64,000 nt of DNA from Lytechinus pictus (Eukaryota), in the NCBI RefSeq assembly GCF_037042905.1, contig NC_087245.1, positions 17,300,001 through 17,364,000 of the forward strand, in the 5' to 3' direction. Below, one piece after another: positions 5,531 to 46,912 of the stretch. Numbering within the stretch: the stretch's first letter is position 1; the number at the start of each line of letters is the position of its first letter. The notes under the pieces were generated by a model. The model was not told where the DNA came from. It ran no database searches and saw only the letters and a list, made by a program, of their open reading frames with translations. A program made the position numbers and the translations under genes.

Positions 5531-7267
5531 CTATAGTGACTCCCGGAAGATGTAGAGTCTGTCTGGAGTACAGAAAGCTATCTCCCCACTCTCGAATGTT
5601 TGGAGAAAGTACCACATTCTTTTCGAGATTTGAAAGTGAAAGTCACTGATGATGATTTTCATCATTTTGAGCTCACTTGTATAAAGACAGATGTTTGCAA
5701 CACCTTCCTTATGGTTAACCCATGCAATGAGAACCGTGTCATCAGTGCACAAACATGGGAATCCAGAGAGGTCTTCTTTGGTGACGCTATGCAGGATGGT
5801 TCCTGATATGCTGTCGACCACCCTTATTGCATTTAAGTCTCTAACCAAGATCTTGTTGCATGTCGAAAATGAGAAGATCTGCTGAGGTTCGTATTCATCA
5901 CACTTTATCTTTCTGATTGGCATCCCACCTTCTGCATCGAACACGTGTATCTCTTTTAGTTTCCTGTAACCGATGAAAATGTGACCATCTATATCCCGTG
6001 CAAAGCCACCCATGCCACCCTCCACATTATCCAGTGAGCCAAATATGAGGGCAAGTTTCTTACATTTTGGGGTATAGAGAGTGATAATGTTATTTTCACC
6101 TTTCCGTACAATATAGCAGCCATCTGGCCTATATTGTAAGCCCCGAACTAAAACATTCAGCAGAACTCTATCTTGTAATGTACCATTAGCAGAATATGTG
6201 ACTATTCCTCCTGCATGGCAACCAACGGATATGTCGTTGTTTGGAGATACTGCTAAACTATCCATACTATTAGATGTTGGTAGCTGCTTGTCTGCCACCA
6301 ATCTCCATTGTTTTCCTCGGCGAACGCAGCCCAGGATATTTCTGGCCGTTCGGTTGTCGCTTTCAAAGCGAATGCGTTCACTTTGGTGAGTCAATCTTCT
6401 TAGCCCTTCCTGATCAGGTTCTGATTCCTTCAAAAGCTTTTCCAGCTCTTCACAAATGGTTTCGTGTGCTTTCAGAAAAGAGGCTTTCTGCAGGAAACAT
6501 TTTAAACCCCCTCTTACTAGCTCACTAACCTTGTTGATATCTGTCACTTTATGATTAGTGATCTTTTCCATTTCTAGTAATGACGTTTTTATCTTCTTCA
6601 GTTCATTCACAACTTTGCTCTTAAGGAGCTCCTTACGCTCCATCAGCTCTGCAACAGATTTCTCAAAAGCTTGGTTGATGTCGTCATGGAGTTCCTTCTC
6701 TACCTTCTCACATGCTTCCCGTTGTTCAGCTATACAGGCAACGTATTTTTCGATGTCACATATCTTTGTCGCTGCTTTCGCCAACAGTTCATCAACATTG
6801 CTTTTCACGACATCTTTATGGTGTTCAGATTCCATGACCGTGTGTCCCTCCTGTACATGCTCACCAATGCCACACTTGTAGCATATGTACTTCCCGCAGT
6901 TGGCGCAGAAACATTCCTCATCACCATCCATATGTTCATCGCAAGTACAGGGTCTCTTCAATGTAACGTTAGCTCGTTGTAAATCATTGACATTAATTTC
7001 TTTATCGTTCTCAGCCGTTATTACCGCCACCATAGACTGGAATGCTTTGCTCATCGGCAATCCACCAACGTCACCATCTGGAATTGGTGTGGTTTCTCGG
7101 CATACTGGACAGGAGATGTTTTGTTTATCCCGTTGAGAGTTGAGTAGAAACTCTAGACAACCCCTGCAGAAGGTATGGGAGCATGACAGAATTCGATGAT
7201 CCTTCAGAAAGCCCAGGCAGACTGGACACTCTAGATTCCTACCAATAGATTCTCTGAGTGAAGCCAT
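5531..7267 (-). CDS. Tripartite-motif (TRIM/RBCC) E3 ligase-like protein with C-terminal NHL-like beta-propeller, copy A (578 aa, CDS in one exon)
   Basis: RING (CPVC..CSHTFCRGC..CPVC), B-box (CDEH..CFCANCGKYICYKC..EH..H), helical coiled coil at ~aa150-300, then propeller-type blades (SLAVSPNNDISV, FARDIDGHIFIG). Architecture resembles TRIM56/TRIM2/3-like proteins. A splice acceptor (TTCTGTTCCAG|G) lies 8 nt before the ATG. Confidence 0.93.
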   Translation of the reverse strand: MASLRESIGRNLECPVCLGFLKDHRILSCSHTFCRGCLEFLLNSQRDKQNISCPVCRETTPIPDGDVGGLPMSKAFQSMVAVITAENDKEINVNDLQRANVTLKRPCTCDEHMDGDEECFCANCGKYICYKCGIGEHVQEGHTVMESEHHKDVVKSNVDELLAKAATKICDIEKYVACIAEQREACEKVEKELHDDINQAFEKSVAELMERKELLKSKVVNELKKIKTSLLEMEKITNHKVTDINKVSELVRGGLKCFLQKASFLKAHETICEELEKLLKESEPDQEGLRRLTHQSERIRFESDNRTARNILGCVRRGKQWRLVADKQLPTSNSMDSLAVSPNNDISVGCHAGGIVTYSANGTLQDRVLLNVLVRGLQYRPDGCYIVRKGENNIITLYTPKCKKLALIFGSLDNVEGGMGGFARDIDGHIFIGYRKLKEIHVFDAEGGMPIRKIKCDEYEPQQIFSFSTCNKILVRDLNAIRVVDSISGTILHSVTKEDLSGFPCLCTDDTVLIAWVNHKEGVANICLYTSELKMMKIIISDFHFQISKRMWYFLQTFESGEIAFCTPDRLYIFRESL

Positions 7268-7275
7268 CTTGTACC

Positions 7276-7883
7276 CTGGAACAGAAATTTAAAACGATTT
7301 TGAAATAAAAATAGACAAAAACGTACAGCGACGAAATAGTAACAAAACTTGTAGAATATAAAGAGAAAATGAAAGAGAGAGGGGTTAAATATGATTTTAT
7401 TTCTGAATATTATGTCAAAATCTATCACAACATTGGACTTTTGAATAAAAAAAATAAAAAAGCTGAAACTTTTGCTCTCTCGCAACTTTTCATTAAATTT
7501 TCCCAATACGCCATATCTACCCCCTCAACTGCCCTAAAACACCCAGTATTTTCAATGATTCCTTCGGATTATTCCCAAAACTAACCCCCTAATAATCCGT
7601 AAAATCGGAAACACGCATGCGGTACAGATGACCATCTGAGTGGGAATTGGGAGAGGGTGTTGACCTAAATCTCATTTCTACCATTTGTTTAGTAAGTCGG
7701 TAGCTCTACCCCTATTAAAAACGTGATGCACAAGAGTTCCAGTGCGTTGAAACAACGAGGAAGATACTAAAGCATATTGATAGCATGCATGATAGAAAAA
7801 CTTCAAAATAATCTGCAATACCTATGAAATGAAGAAAACACGCATATCTGTTCAAGAGAGTCACCCAATCTGGTGTAGCTTAC
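7276..7883 (-). other. Predicted 5'-UTR intron of TRIM copy A; non-coding exon 1 lies from 7884 upward
   Basis: Minus-strand donor CCGAG|GTAAGC at 7884/7883. Polypyrimidine acceptor ...TTTCTGTTCCAG| at 7276. Both sites are present in copy B. Confidence 0.6.
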
Positions 7884-24998: not shown

Positions 24999-26735
24999 CT
25001 ATAGTGACTCCCGGAAGATGTAGAGTCTGTCTGGAGTACAGAAAGCTATCTCCCCACTCTTGAATGTTTGGAGAAAGTACCACTTTCTTTCCGAGATTTG
25101 AAAGTGAAAGTCACTGATGATGGTTTTCATCATTTTGAGCTCACTTGTGTAAAGAGAGATGTTTGCCACACATTCCTTGTTGTTAACCCATGCAATGAGA
25201 ACCGTGTCATCAGTGCACAAACATGGGAATCCAGAGAGGGCTTCCTTGGTGACGCTATGCAGGATGGTTCCTGATATGCTGTCGACCACCCTTATTGCAT
25301 TTAAGTCTCTTACCAAGAGCTTGTTGCTTGTCGATAGTGAGAAGATCTGTTGAGGTTCGTATCCATCACACTTTATCTCTCTGATTGGTATCCCACCTTT
25401 TGCATTGAACACGTGTATCTCTTTTAGTTTCCTGTAACCGATGAAAATGTGGCCATCTCGACCCCGTGCTAAGCCACCAATGCCACCCTTCACATTATCC
25501 AGTGTGTCAAATGACAGGGCAAGTTTCTTACATTTTGGGGTATAGAGAGTGATAATGTTATTTTCACCTTTCCGTACAATATAGCAGCCATCTGGCCTAT
25601 ATTGTAAGCCCCGAACTAAAACATTCAGCAGAACTCTATCTTGTAATGTACCATTAGCAGAATATGTGACTATTCCTCCTGCATGGCAACCAACGGATAT
25701 GTCGTTGTTTGGAGATACTGCTAAACTATCCATGCTATTAGCTGATGGCAGCTGCTTGTCTGCCACCAATCTCCATTGTTTTCCTCGGCGAACGCAGTCC
25801 AAGAGATTTCTGGCTGTTCGGTTGTCGCTTTCAAAGCGAATGCGTTCACTTTGGTGAGTCAATCTTCTTAGCCCTTCCTGATCAGGTTCTGATTCCTTCA
25901 AAAGCTTTTCCAGCTCTTCACAAAGGGTTTCGTGTGCTTTCAGAAGAGAGGCTTTCTGCAGGAAACCTTTTAAACCCCCTCTTACTAGCTCACTAACCTT
26001 GTTGATATATGTCACTTGCTGATTAGTGATCTTTTCCATTTCTAGTAATGACGTTTTTATCTTCTTCAGTTCATTCACAACTTTGCTCTTAAGGAGCTCC
26101 TTACGCTCCATCAGCTCTGCAACAGATTTCTCAAAAGCTTGGTTGATGTCGTCATGGAGTTCCTTATCTACCTTCTCACATGTTTCCCATTGTTCAGCTA
26201 TACAGGCAATGTATTTTTCGATGTCACATTTCTTTGTAGCTGCTTTCGTCAACAGTTCATTAACATTGCTTTTCACGACATCTTTATGGCGTTCAACGTC
26301 CATGACCGTGTGTCCCTCCTGCACATGCTCACCAATGCCACACTTGTAGCATATGTACTTCCCGCAGTTGGCGCAGAAACATTCCTCATCACCATCCATA
26401 TGTTCATCGCACGTACAGGGTCTCTTCAATGCAACGTTAGCTCGTTGTAAATCATTGACATTAATTTCTTTATCGTTCTCAGCCGTTACTTCCGCTACCA
26501 TAGACTGGAATGCTTTGCTCATCGGCAATCCACCAGCGTCACCATCTGGAATTGGTGTGGTTTCTCGGCATACTGGACAGAATATGTTTTGTTTATCCTG
26601 TTGAGAGTTGAGTAGAAACTCAAGACAACCCCTGCAGAAGGTATGGGAGCATGACAGAATTCGGTGATCCTTCAGAAAGCCCAGGCAGACTGGACACTCT
26701 AGGTTCCTATCAATATATTCTCTTAGTGAAGCCAT
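24999..26735 (-). CDS. TRIM (RBCC + NHL-like beta-propeller) protein, copy B (578 aa)
   Basis: Colinear with copy A without indels. About 52 amino-acid differences by manual count (~91% identity). Zn ligands intact. Confidence 0.93.
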   Translation of the reverse strand: MASLREYIDRNLECPVCLGFLKDHRILSCSHTFCRGCLEFLLNSQQDKQNIFCPVCRETTPIPDGDAGGLPMSKAFQSMVAEVTAENDKEINVNDLQRANVALKRPCTCDEHMDGDEECFCANCGKYICYKCGIGEHVQEGHTVMDVERHKDVVKSNVNELLTKAATKKCDIEKYIACIAEQWETCEKVDKELHDDINQAFEKSVAELMERKELLKSKVVNELKKIKTSLLEMEKITNQQVTYINKVSELVRGGLKGFLQKASLLKAHETLCEELEKLLKESEPDQEGLRRLTHQSERIRFESDNRTARNLLDCVRRGKQWRLVADKQLPSANSMDSLAVSPNNDISVGCHAGGIVTYSANGTLQDRVLLNVLVRGLQYRPDGCYIVRKGENNIITLYTPKCKKLALSFDTLDNVKGGIGGLARGRDGHIFIGYRKLKEIHVFNAKGGIPIREIKCDGYEPQQIFSLSTSNKLLVRDLNAIRVVDSISGTILHSVTKEALSGFPCLCTDDTVLIAWVNNKECVANISLYTSELKMMKTIISDFHFQISERKWYFLQTFKSGEIAFCTPDRLYIFRESL

Positions 26736-26743
26736 CTTGTACC

Positions 26744-27303
26744 CTGGAACAGAGATTTCAAACGATTTTGAAATAAAAAATAGACAAAAAATACAACAAA
26801 TTACAACAGTAAAAATAAAAAAAAACTTGTAGAATATAAAGAGAAAGAGAGAGAGGGGTTAAATATGATTTTATTTCTGAATGTTGTGTCAAAATCTATC
26901 ACAACATTGGACTTTTCTTTTCCCAGTACGCCATATCTGCCCCCTCAACTGCCCTATAACACCCAGTATTTTCAATGATTCCTTCGGATAATTCCAAAAC
27001 TAACCCCCGAAAAATCCGTAAAATCGGAAAAACGCATGCGGTACAGATGACCATCTAAGTGGGAATTTGGGGAGGGGGGTGACCTCAATCTCATTTCTAC
27101 CATTTGTTTAGTAAGTCGGTAGCTCTACCCATATTACCAACGTAATGCACAAGAGTTCCAGTTGCGTTGAAACATTGAGGAAGATACTAAAGCATATTGA
27201 TAGCATGCATGATAGAAAAACTGCAAAATTATCTGCAATACCTATAAAATGAAGCAAACACCCATATTTTTTCAAGAGAGTCATCCAATCTGATGTAGAT
27301 TAC
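26744..27303 (-). other. Predicted 5'-UTR intron of TRIM copy B
   Basis: Donor CCGAG|GTAATC at 27304/27303 and acceptor TCTGTTCCAG| at 26744, paralogous to copy A. Confidence 0.55.
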
Positions 27304-38148: not shown

Positions 38149-39169
38149 TTAAATAAGCAAAACATGTAAAAAAAAATCAGCAAATGCGCGTGAAAAATAA
38201 CGAAATTATCGAAATGCAAATTGTTACTGTTGAAACAGTTACATTAATGTCATTATGGATATGGCTTTTAGCATATCCATATTCCTCTCGTTTTATTTTC
38301 TTACACCACATTTTGATTAATTCATTTCTTTTATACAAATGTGAAATGGGTATGAAAAATATATATCCATGGTATCCATTGACTTACAGCAGGGACGATA
38401 TCACACATTTTAAAGCGGAAGGTAATATCATACAATCTTTACGTTCTTGAAGCATAAATTAAGAACAGTGTTAATTTCATATGACAGTATAAAAATGAAA
38501 AGTGGGGAGATGATAACTGCTCGCTAATTGTACATTCATGATACCATGGATGTGCCTGCTTTTACACCAATAAATAAAAAACTTATTTTTCAATGACATT
38601 TTGATGAAATTGTCTATTTTACTATACTTATTTTAATTCATATTTTTATTTTCATGTTGAAGTAAAACTGTATTAAAGGATTGGTATTGAATGTAATTTA
38701 GGCAGCTAATCCATCAATTTCCATCTAGCAATAAGAACTTTAAAAAAATGTGGGGATATGAAGAAAAAGGTAATTGAACACGATAGAAATCATGGGCAAA
38801 ATTTTGAAGTCGTACGTGGTGAGTACCATCTCTTTACGGATTTGGGAGCACAAAGACAAGACATAGCACTTTTACTGCATGAGGAACGTTCGCTGTGTGA
38901 GATCTTCGTGCGGGCTATGGATTCATCCCCATTACGGGTGACGCGAGTGCCCTCTGCTGCCAACGTTTATCGCACCTGCACGTACTTACAACTTCCGAGT
39001 GAGTAAGGACACCATACGTGTAGAGCACGTGTAAGTAAAACCTCCGAACGATAGGATGGCAATCACACGGAGATCATACGTTGTAAGTGCGTTGTAATCA
39101 CGTTCAACTCTCTTACCACGTGCACAAAGTAGGATGCACGCAACCGCTCTCTTCGTAGATGAGACCAGA

Positions 39170-39348
39170 GACTGGGCGTTGTGGCGTGCGCCTGTAATCC
39201 AAGCTGTGGGGAAGTTACAAATTGATGCAGAGGATCGAGGTTCGAGCCCTGGTCACGTCTTTCGGATGGTGACGTTAAAGGTCGGTCCCAGACGTAAATA
39301 ATCATATCTGATTGATACACGTCTGACAAAACTCGAATACACACACAC
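39170..39348 (+). mobile_element. Putative 7SL-RNA-derived SINE (Alu-domain head, conserved SINE body, (CA)n tail)
   Basis: GACTGGGCGTTGTGGCGTGCGCCTGTAATCCAAGCT..TGATGCAGAGGATCG..TTCGAGCCCTGG aligns by eye with the 7SL 5' end (GCCGGGCGCGGTGGCGCGTGCCTGTAGTCCCAGCT..TGAGGCTGGAGGATCGCTTGAG). B box GGTTCGAGCC at 39239. Body GTCTTTCGGATGGTGACGTTAAAGGTCGGTCC. (AC)n tail. Confidence 0.75.
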
Positions 39349-40024
39349 GCTCTCGGTCGTAGGAGTGACGTGCGTTGACGTAATCCCTCCCTATTCTCGC
39401 CATTCTCTTCTCACCTTTTTTAAAGAAAAACATGGCGGCCGTGCCCCACCCCCAAAAAACACACACACTTACGGACTAAAAACACGCAAGATGGGTTGTG
39501 ACCAAGGCTTTACAGGTATATGTAACGTATTCTGTACGAGATATGAAGTGCTGAAAAGGAGTGTTTCGTATTTCTAATTTGAATTGAAATAAAACTCTGC
39601 TAATTTACATAATCATGTATAAAGAACCCGAAATACGAATATTTCACTAATCACTCGAGAAATATAGTTTCGATCAGTTGACAGTGTGTCTCGTAAGTTA
39701 TCAACAACGACAACAAAGCCCGGCAATGTAAAGTATAATACGAATAAATATGTCCCATATGAATTTGTTTAATGTTTATCATCAGGATTTCAAAATATAT
39801 TAATCATTTGGAATTATCACACAGAATATAAAGAGAAACTTATTGATCGACAAATACGTATCATCACACACACAACGTACATTACACACAACTCATAGTC
39901 TAGAGCGTGGCACAGCAGAAACGCATTCAAGCACGCACACCCACACACACCCTCTCAGACACACTCGCGCACACACCTTCACTGCTAGTCCATCACCATT
40001 ACCAAAACATGTACCGTAACTATA

Positions 40025-46130: not shown

Positions 46131-46703
46131 TGGGCGAGCTGCTCGTACATGACGTCGCAAATTAAAAGTTAAATTTTTTTTCTTCTTCTTTTGGAACAAA
46201 CTTATCATCGGTTGTAAACTTCCCCTTTAACGAGCTGGTTCCTAAAATACAAACAAAAAATGTATCTCCTTAGTTTTACCTAAATCGACGATAATCCTAG
46301 TTTTGAATGTTCTGTCATTGACTTTCATATCATTTAACAGGAAATCGCGATGATAGAGGTGGTTTTAAAAAAGTAACTTGGAATGTTAAATTATGGGTGT
46401 TTCGATTGACCAATTTGTAGCCAGTCAGCGCAAAATAGACATAGAATTGCTGAACATGAATTTAGAAAAACGATAACTAAGGTTCAATTATTTGGTTACA
46501 AAAACATAGAAACAAATTTGAATATAGACTGACAACACAGAGGTAAAGCATCATAATTATGACAATAATTAGGGCCTTATTAGATTCATTAGATGAAGCC
46601 ATATCTTTTGTAAACAATCTCTAAGTTGAATGACTATATCTATTACGTTCATTTCTGACGCACATTATATCATTGTTTACAAGGTAAGAAGCCATATTCA
46701 TAT

Positions 46704-46912
46704 TGGTGGTGGTGATTTTTTACCTGATTGCTAAGAAAGCATGAATGCTTGTAAGCAAGCAACCAGAGGACCGACGGCTTAAGGTCCTCTCCGAAGGACC
46801 TGGTACTGAGGATTAATGCCTTACCAAAGGGCACTAGCGCACCAAGTGAGAATCGAACCCGGGTCACCGGAATACGAGTCCCCCGCTCTACCGACTGAGC
46901 TATCGCGCCTCC
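46704..46912 (-). mobile_element. tRNA-derived SINE
   Basis: Minus strand GGAGGCGCGATAGCTCAGTCGGTAGAGCG..GGTTCGATTCTC (A and B boxes), body GTCCTTCGGAGAGGACCTTAAGCCGTCGGTCC, (CAC)n tail. Empty site at ~53368-53395. Confidence 0.88.

Follow-up and report, generated by a model that had tools for sequence, protein, structure and literature searches.

The element at 39171..39348 (+) of the window (the whole 64,000-nt stretch of Lytechinus pictus DNA analyzed here), of which it is the sole copy there, is a member of a young SINE family with at least 1,000 copies. We put the probability at roughly 80% that this family is an independently arisen SINE1, formed by a head swap that placed the 5′ domain of the 7SL Alu fold on an older tRNA-type SINE. 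The first-pass annotation of the window had proposed a 7SL-derived SINE in an invertebrate, and both points hold: the host belongs to the sea urchin genus Lytechinus, and the head matches 7SL RNA in Rfam and in a host paralogue. The way in which the rest of the element was acquired had been read differently, as described below.

The element is 178 nt long and begins at 39171, one base after the start (39170) first assigned to it. All of its parts lie on the plus strand. The 7SL-derived head (39171..39215) consists of the Alu 5′ domain only, with helices 2, 3, and 4, the U-turn, and both loops, and contains the 7SL A-box position at element nt 6-15 (position according to PMC7245038). It is followed by a tRNA-like 3′ half (39216..39255) with variable loop, T arm, and acceptor side, which has no match to host 7SL nt 46-120 and occurs in a long and a short form 7 nt apart (52 and 43 of 95 copies, respectively). 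The consensus type-2 Pol III B box reported earlier at 39239..39249 is present within this half, and its core positions are kept in 90-93 of the 95 copies. Next come a Deu/Nin(Inv)-like 5′ core (39256..39289), a 3′ stem-loop that is a predicted LINE recognition signal (39290..39325), and an A-rich linker with an (AC)n tail (39326..39348). The (AC)n tail and the absence of the 7SL S domain had both been noted correctly, and the tail is also found in the fetched copies. The element itself contains no T4 Pol III terminator; the first one lies at ~39416, at +68 for the window copy. The fold of the whole element is no better than that of shuffled sequences (z 0.49), and helices 2 and 4 are not recovered in its minimum-energy fold.

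A genome search returned 1,606 candidates, and the 40 that were scored are all 99-100% identical; three tandem neighbors beside scored copies show 93-98% identity. Exact motifs from the B box, the body, and the tail gave 722, 1,022, and 1,128 genomic matches, which are lower bounds on the copy number, and the reversed controls gave 0. A common 5′ end is evident, since 110 of 134 distinct fetched copies begin at nt 1-3. Among 30 body matches sampled by position, 27 carry the 7SL-like head with the same junction, and the other three are 5′-truncated or decayed; this uniform chimeric structure argues against a plain 7SL retrocopy. The median divergence from the majority sequence is 1.2%, and 1.8% in 24 position-sampled copies, and older copies (~85% identical) are also present. 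The conservation across copies reflects youth and is not proof of selection. Target site duplications (TSDs) were assessed in 95 independent insertions, obtained from 126 full-length copies after removal of 31 that were tandem or duplicated. TSDs of 7-19 nt flank 19 of the 95, compared with 4 of 1,349 shuffled (mismatched) flank pairs, and the other 76 have no clear TSD. An earlier, looser test (25/113 versus 27/338) was blurred by tandem and duplicated loci. The family has these marks of the SINE class, being short, noncoding, and dispersed, with a common 5′ end, a simple-repeat tail, and TSDs.

These counts bear on the most trivial explanation, in which the locus is a one-off 7SL pseudogene beside a SINE fragment, or human Alu contamination. 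The Rfam score of the head is indeed under the gathering threshold, but more than 1,000 copies share the junction, the head equals the host's own 7SL at 29-30 of its first 30 nt, and the flanks are host repeats and genes, so that we consider this explanation practically negligible. The single genomic copy that was to overturn the first-pass annotation is likewise not what the genome holds. Head-to-tail arrays of 2-4 copies with 2-4-nt spacers were observed at several loci (L004, L039-L044, and L070); those of L039-L044 have common flanks on different contigs, indicating that the arrays ride inside a larger repeat. Two older copies (L063/L101 and L093) are interrupted just 3′ of the B box, each by a different short element with inverted repeats (~170 and 310 nt).

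The window copy interrupts an older dispersed repeat (38787..39510, strand not assigned; 30 matches with 67-90% identity). The motif CGCTCTC stands on the plus strand both upstream (39145..39151, imperfect to 39158) and downstream of the element (39348..39354, the native copy). It must have been duplicated, because the nine fetched paralogues of the interrupted repeat carry it once. The degenerate flanking repeat described previously is therefore a true duplication, but not a plain TSD, as ~19 extra bases separate the upstream motif from the element. Elsewhere in the window, two intronless RING/TRIM-like genes on the minus strand (5531-7288 and 24999-26858) are 91% identical and part of an echinoid expansion; the best named relatives of a TRIM gene of the window are from L. 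pictus (90%), L. variegatus (84%), and S. purpuratus (61%).

The head was matched by Rfam RF00017 at 39171-39226 (31.1 bits and an E value of 3e-06 on 701 bases; the gathering score is 70 bits). The better match to a tRNA head that could have displaced this assignment did not appear, as there is no tRNA family among the five Rfam matches on the 701 bases around the element. The element has no complete tRNA-derived head with an A box of its own, and its tRNA-like part is the B-box half only. Compared with the 7SL paralogue L037, the head is identical at 42 of 45 positions, up to the end of helix 2. Its first 30 nt show 0 differences to L037 and one to each of the other six host 7SL genes, and the alignment scores are 70 (L037) and 59 (L031) against a background of 18+-3. 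A compensatory pair, U3-A43 in place of C3-G, is found in 85 of 92 SINE copies and in L037. With this pair and the 42 matching positions, the element has the 7SL-derived 5′ part by which SINE1 is defined (PMC7245038). From the common compensatory change we infer that the L037 lineage was probably the donor of the head; in another reading of the same change, L037 may have been converted by the SINE.

The secondary structure of the head is well kept among the copies. Its base pairs are retained in 75-95 of 92-95 copies, and the exceptions are two positions that are also non-pairing in host 7SL. G24 of the U-turn is present in 95/95 copies; it is the base whose mutation (G25C) lowers Alu retrotransposition by 88%, in the excerpted text of PMC11581171. 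The Rfam match and the copy alignment support the earlier statement that helix 3 and the U-turn of the SRP9/14-binding fold are intact. The second stem that had been described is real but is better read as helix 4 (nt 28-30/40-42) closed by helix 2 (nt 1-3/43-45). Loop 2 has 9-11 nt in the SINE and 8-9 in 7SL and varies between subfamilies, the 7SL-like form being in the minority of copies; the loop-loop contact may be weakened by this longer, variable loop. Within the head, common length changes affect loop 2 alone and spare the stems and the U-turn. The junction lies exactly at the end of helix 2, so the whole 5′ domain and nothing more was kept.

The resemblance to 7SL had been thought to extend over ~85 nt, but it ends at nt 45. 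Nucleotides 48-88 of three copies gave scores of 12-14 against host 7SL, and shuffled sequences gave 13-15 (p 0.60-0.75); the segment before the B box gave p 0.999. There is also no match in the element to the 3′ strand of the Alu domain (7SL nt 250-299; p 0.81), an absence that had been overlooked, and the complete Alu domain with both its 5′ and 3′ parts is thus not retained. Judged by these alignments, nt 1-45 are the sole 7SL-derived part of the element. The route suggested by the first-pass annotation, in which ~85 nt of 7SL were retained and the B box arose within them through a small insertion, is very improbable in the light of these values. A forced multiple alignment does run through 100 nt, and GGATCG before the B box of the window copy recalls 7SL; however, this look-alike is a minor variant, found in 5 of the 52 long-form copies, and the segment it belongs to continues into a body and tail that occur under non-7SL heads as well.

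Of 6,077 candidates in the genome, 25 were scored, and these include at least seven complete 7SL genes (272-283 bits). Human and hagfish 7SL have an internal B box at nt 76-86 (PMC7245038). A consensus B box was found inside none of the seven sea urchin genes, with the strict consensus used here being one that might also miss an internal box of the human and hagfish type. In six of the seven (L031-L036), a perfect B box lies past the T-tract, 22-46 nt downstream of 7SL nt 295, and a common GGTGT motif follows within 15 nt on its 3′ side; three of the six form one tandem cluster. The downstream B box is a possible extragenic promoter element. The promoter of the yeast U6 gene (SNR6) has an internal A box and a B box past the terminator, and the six sea urchin genes appear to share this layout, a likeness that concerns the host genes and not the SINE. 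The literature searched contained no paper on a downstream B box for an animal 7SL gene. Should the downstream boxes prove functional, retrocopies of 7SL would be made without a B box, and further copying would be open only to a chimera that has one internally; the borrowed B box of the SINE would then be explained by the position of the host 7SL B boxes outside the transcript. The seventh gene, L037 (G000:C12:4895279-4895577, minus), retains the conserved motif upstream but lacks a B box over 4.5 kb, and may represent the donor lineage, a pseudogene, or a converted copy. In the tandem cluster (L031, L035, and L036; G000:C10, 7.91-7.92 Mb), a SINE copy ends ~33 nt upstream of each gene.

Two sources can be considered for the B-box half. 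Nucleotides 48-88 match the 3′ half of the heads of a resident tRNA-type SINE (p 0.001-0.015), and they match the 3′ flank of the 7SL gene L035 equally well (p 0.001 or lower; scores of 32-36 for both). The latter match, the box in the flank of six of seven genes, and the SINE copies upstream of the three clustered 7SL genes would fit a scenario in which a read-through or deleted 7SL gene brought its 5′ domain together with the B box downstream of the same gene, and another SINE supplied no more than the Deu-like core and the tail. When the B box is excluded, however, the match to the 7SL flank fades (p 0.06-0.10), and three of the four comparisons with tRNA-SINE heads keep it (p 0.001, 0.007, 0.008, and 0.088, the first two copies having been picked by a common motif). 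Moreover, the flank box is missing from L037, the gene most similar to the head, and in three outside relatives of the element the same body is already preceded by a B box at an equal distance, so that this scenario needs a second junction. We therefore regard an origin of the B-box segment from the 7SL locus itself as unlikely.

The three outside relatives are metagenome contigs (L241-L243) that match the body and tail at 73, 79, and 82 of 85 nt (86-96% identity), and in which a B-box-like motif is placed relative to the body as in the SINE. Each has a head of its own, and they end in (AC)n or (AACC)n. The heads are non-7SL (p 0.78, 0.30, and 0.077 in the 7SL test), and A-box-like motifs are visible by eye in two of them. 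No Rfam tRNA match was found in the three heads, and their match to SINE nt 46-84 is weak (p 0.84, 0.081, and 0.011). These relatives may reflect a wide spread of the body or horizontal transfer. A further match, on a viral contig (L244), was rejected as a chance 19-mer. Because the segment is unlike host 7SL and because body and tail occur under non-7SL heads, the most likely source of the B-box segment is a tRNA-type SINE.

The core that follows (nt 86-119) also has counterparts in the sea urchin genome: two further SINE types and a LINE 3′ UTR match it with scores of 30, 41, and 36 against ~17. By eye, this 34-nt core resembles the first part of the BivaMD-SINE1 Deu domain as far as given in the supplement alignment of PMC4824008. 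The window at ~46700-46912 (minus) contains a tRNA-headed SINE from a different family, again with a Deu-like core, which is also present in L073. An RNase-H LINE (L185; G000:C15:1597608-1599800) has a Deu-like core in its 3′ UTR (score 36 versus 16), which hints that LINE UTRs can harbor this domain of the SINE body.

A tRNA-headed parent of the family was sought in the sea urchin genome with several patterns. None was present among the 30 position-sampled body matches, among 20 tail-only matches, which were all family copies, or among 30 matches to a divergent copy, which turned out to be an old copy interrupted by the insertion of another element. A Deu-variant pattern gave one genomic match, to another SINE. 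A pattern of A box, B box, and core gave 1,018 matches, and nearly all of the 100 listed belong to an unrelated CORE-like tRNA SINE. This abundant SINE (L162-L181 and L202-L226) has first bases that resemble the 7SL start, and many copies of the L162 type lie inside one larger repeat.

The tail of the element is predicted to fold into a stem of 6-7 bp, a 3x4 internal loop, and a stem of 6 bp. We examined 29 RNase-H LINE loci, taken from 150 scored of 257 candidates. The same 3′ geometry is predicted for four families among them (L146, L161, L186, and L189), the sequences of which differ. Several of these four have open frames of >1,200 aa, and L146/L227 has an intact 1,241-aa frame with APE, RT, and RNase H domains, a layout that we take to be that of the I group. 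The homologue search with the LINE named no clade. In the alignment of L146 with the SINE tail, 40 of 64 columns are identical, and the lower stem differs on both sides. The sequence test of the L146 3′ UTR gave p 0.007, a value uncorrected for the selection of this locus from those examined, and two of the four LINE UTRs tested by sequence gave no signal (p 0.80 and 0.62). No LINE with a near-identical tail was present among the 29 loci, and none of the four families ends in (AC)n; L146 and L161 end in (AACC)n, as does the metagenome relative L243. On the strength of the modeled geometry, the partner of the SINE is likely an RNase-H LINE of the I group.

Here, we propose the following course of events based on these comparisons. 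The first 45 bases would have been taken from a host 7SL gene of the L037 lineage, and a head swap would have placed this piece in front of the B-box half of an older tRNA-type SINE, which would also have contributed the body and the tail. The A box supplied by 7SL and the B box of the older SINE would together form a putative hybrid internal promoter, from which Pol III probably transcribes the element, and the transcripts would run on to the first T-tract in the flank, giving a predicted length of ~245 nt for the window copy rather than 180. By analogy with Alu, the 5′ domain is predicted to bind SRP9/14 and to park the RNA at ribosomes. The ORF2 protein of the LINE would recognize the 3′ stem-loop and prime on the (AC)n tail.

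By the same analogy, we lean slightly toward a real role of SRP9/14 in the mobility of the element. The 7SL piece might instead serve as A box and start site only, with the Alu fold and SRP9/14 binding as passengers that have no role in mobility; the anatomy would be the same, and only the function would differ. The drift of loop 2 between subfamilies is consistent with such passengers, and a stem-loop tail can recruit the LINE RT by itself. Moreover, Alu, B1, Urop, and the hagfish element, as PMC13023118 (in part) and PMC7245038 describe them, retain the 3′ Alu strand that is missing here. On the other hand, the junction at the very end of helix 2, the sparing of stems and U-turn from length changes, and the fact that the 7SL-headed form alone has spread in this genome all speak for a function of the fold. 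We consider the passenger role a serious contender, if a rather doubtful one.

The sea urchin SINE breaks the SINE1 pattern in its invertebrate host, the lack of the 3′ Alu strand, the probably borrowed B box, and the likely different class of LINE. In its full form our interpretation is tentative, with a chance somewhat short of even: a new SINE1 plan and fourth independent origin, the first 7SL-derived SINE of an invertebrate, in which the bare 45-nt SRP9/14-binding domain would suffice for a ribosome-targeting advantage even when paired with a stem-loop-reading I-group LINE, and in which a tRNA-type B box would be needed since the 7SL box lies downstream. A 2006 paper reportedly called an amphioxus SINE an Alu element, which bears on the claim to be the first in invertebrates. 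For the question of whether SRP9/14 and the Alu 5′ domain promote retrotransposition by themselves, the SINE offers a natural minimal construct in an animal that is tractable in the laboratory. A possible reason for the rarity of SINE1 is suggested as well: where 7SL genes rely on outside elements, a copy would become mobile only after gaining an internal B box.

Published surveys place 7SL-derived SINEs in few hosts. They are listed only from supraprimates, hagfish, and shrew mole, with nearly the same central deletion in all, in the excerpted text of PMC13023118 (2026); in the portions at hand, PMC10886601 lists SINE1 only from primates, rodents, and hagfish and PMC5786205 only from Euarchontoglires. 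The literature searched, as distinct from repeat databases, holds no report of a 7SL-derived SINE from an echinoderm. Alu, B1, and Tu of Euarchontoglires and Urop of the shrew mole resemble the sea urchin SINE in having the 7SL 5′ domain with the U-turn and in the loss of the S domain. Unlike it, they have a ~183-nt central deletion, retain the 3′ Alu strand, and use poly(A) and L1 (PMC13023118, in part). Their full Alu domain is not found here, as the element matches neither 7SL nt 250-299 nor nt 46-120, and instead of a poly(A) tail and an L1 partner it shows an (AC)n tail after a stem-loop. The absence of a central deletion that keeps both Alu strands agrees with the origin proposed at first sight, independent of Alu/B1 and of the hagfish element.

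The DeuSINEs and the SINEs with Nin and Inv domains, such as SINE2-3_SP of sea urchin and BivaMD-SINE1, likewise have a Deu-like 5′ core directly 3′ of a tRNA-like T arm. Exchanges of the head have precedents in the superfamily, where 5S rRNA was fused to a partial tRNA head. The sea urchin SINE differs in having only ~34 nt of core and in the swapped-in head, which is 7SL, a type that the parts of the three sources at hand do not list (PMC4824008, PMC5804259, and PMC4758252 in part, for all of these points). A close parallel is hagfish SINE1-1_EBu (PMC7245038), which also combines an independent 7SL head with the tail of an older tRNA SINE, is young, has a microsatellite tail and, as is likely here, a non-L1 partner, and reached a similar copy number (2,363). 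The hagfish element, however, retains the 5′ 96 nt and the 3′ end of 7SL, and hence the full Alu domain with its own A and B boxes, as well as bipartite RTE parts and regular TSDs of ~17 bp, whereas the sea urchin SINE combines 45 nt of 7SL, a probably borrowed B box, a Deu-like core, and an I-group-like stem-loop, with TSDs in a fifth of its copies.
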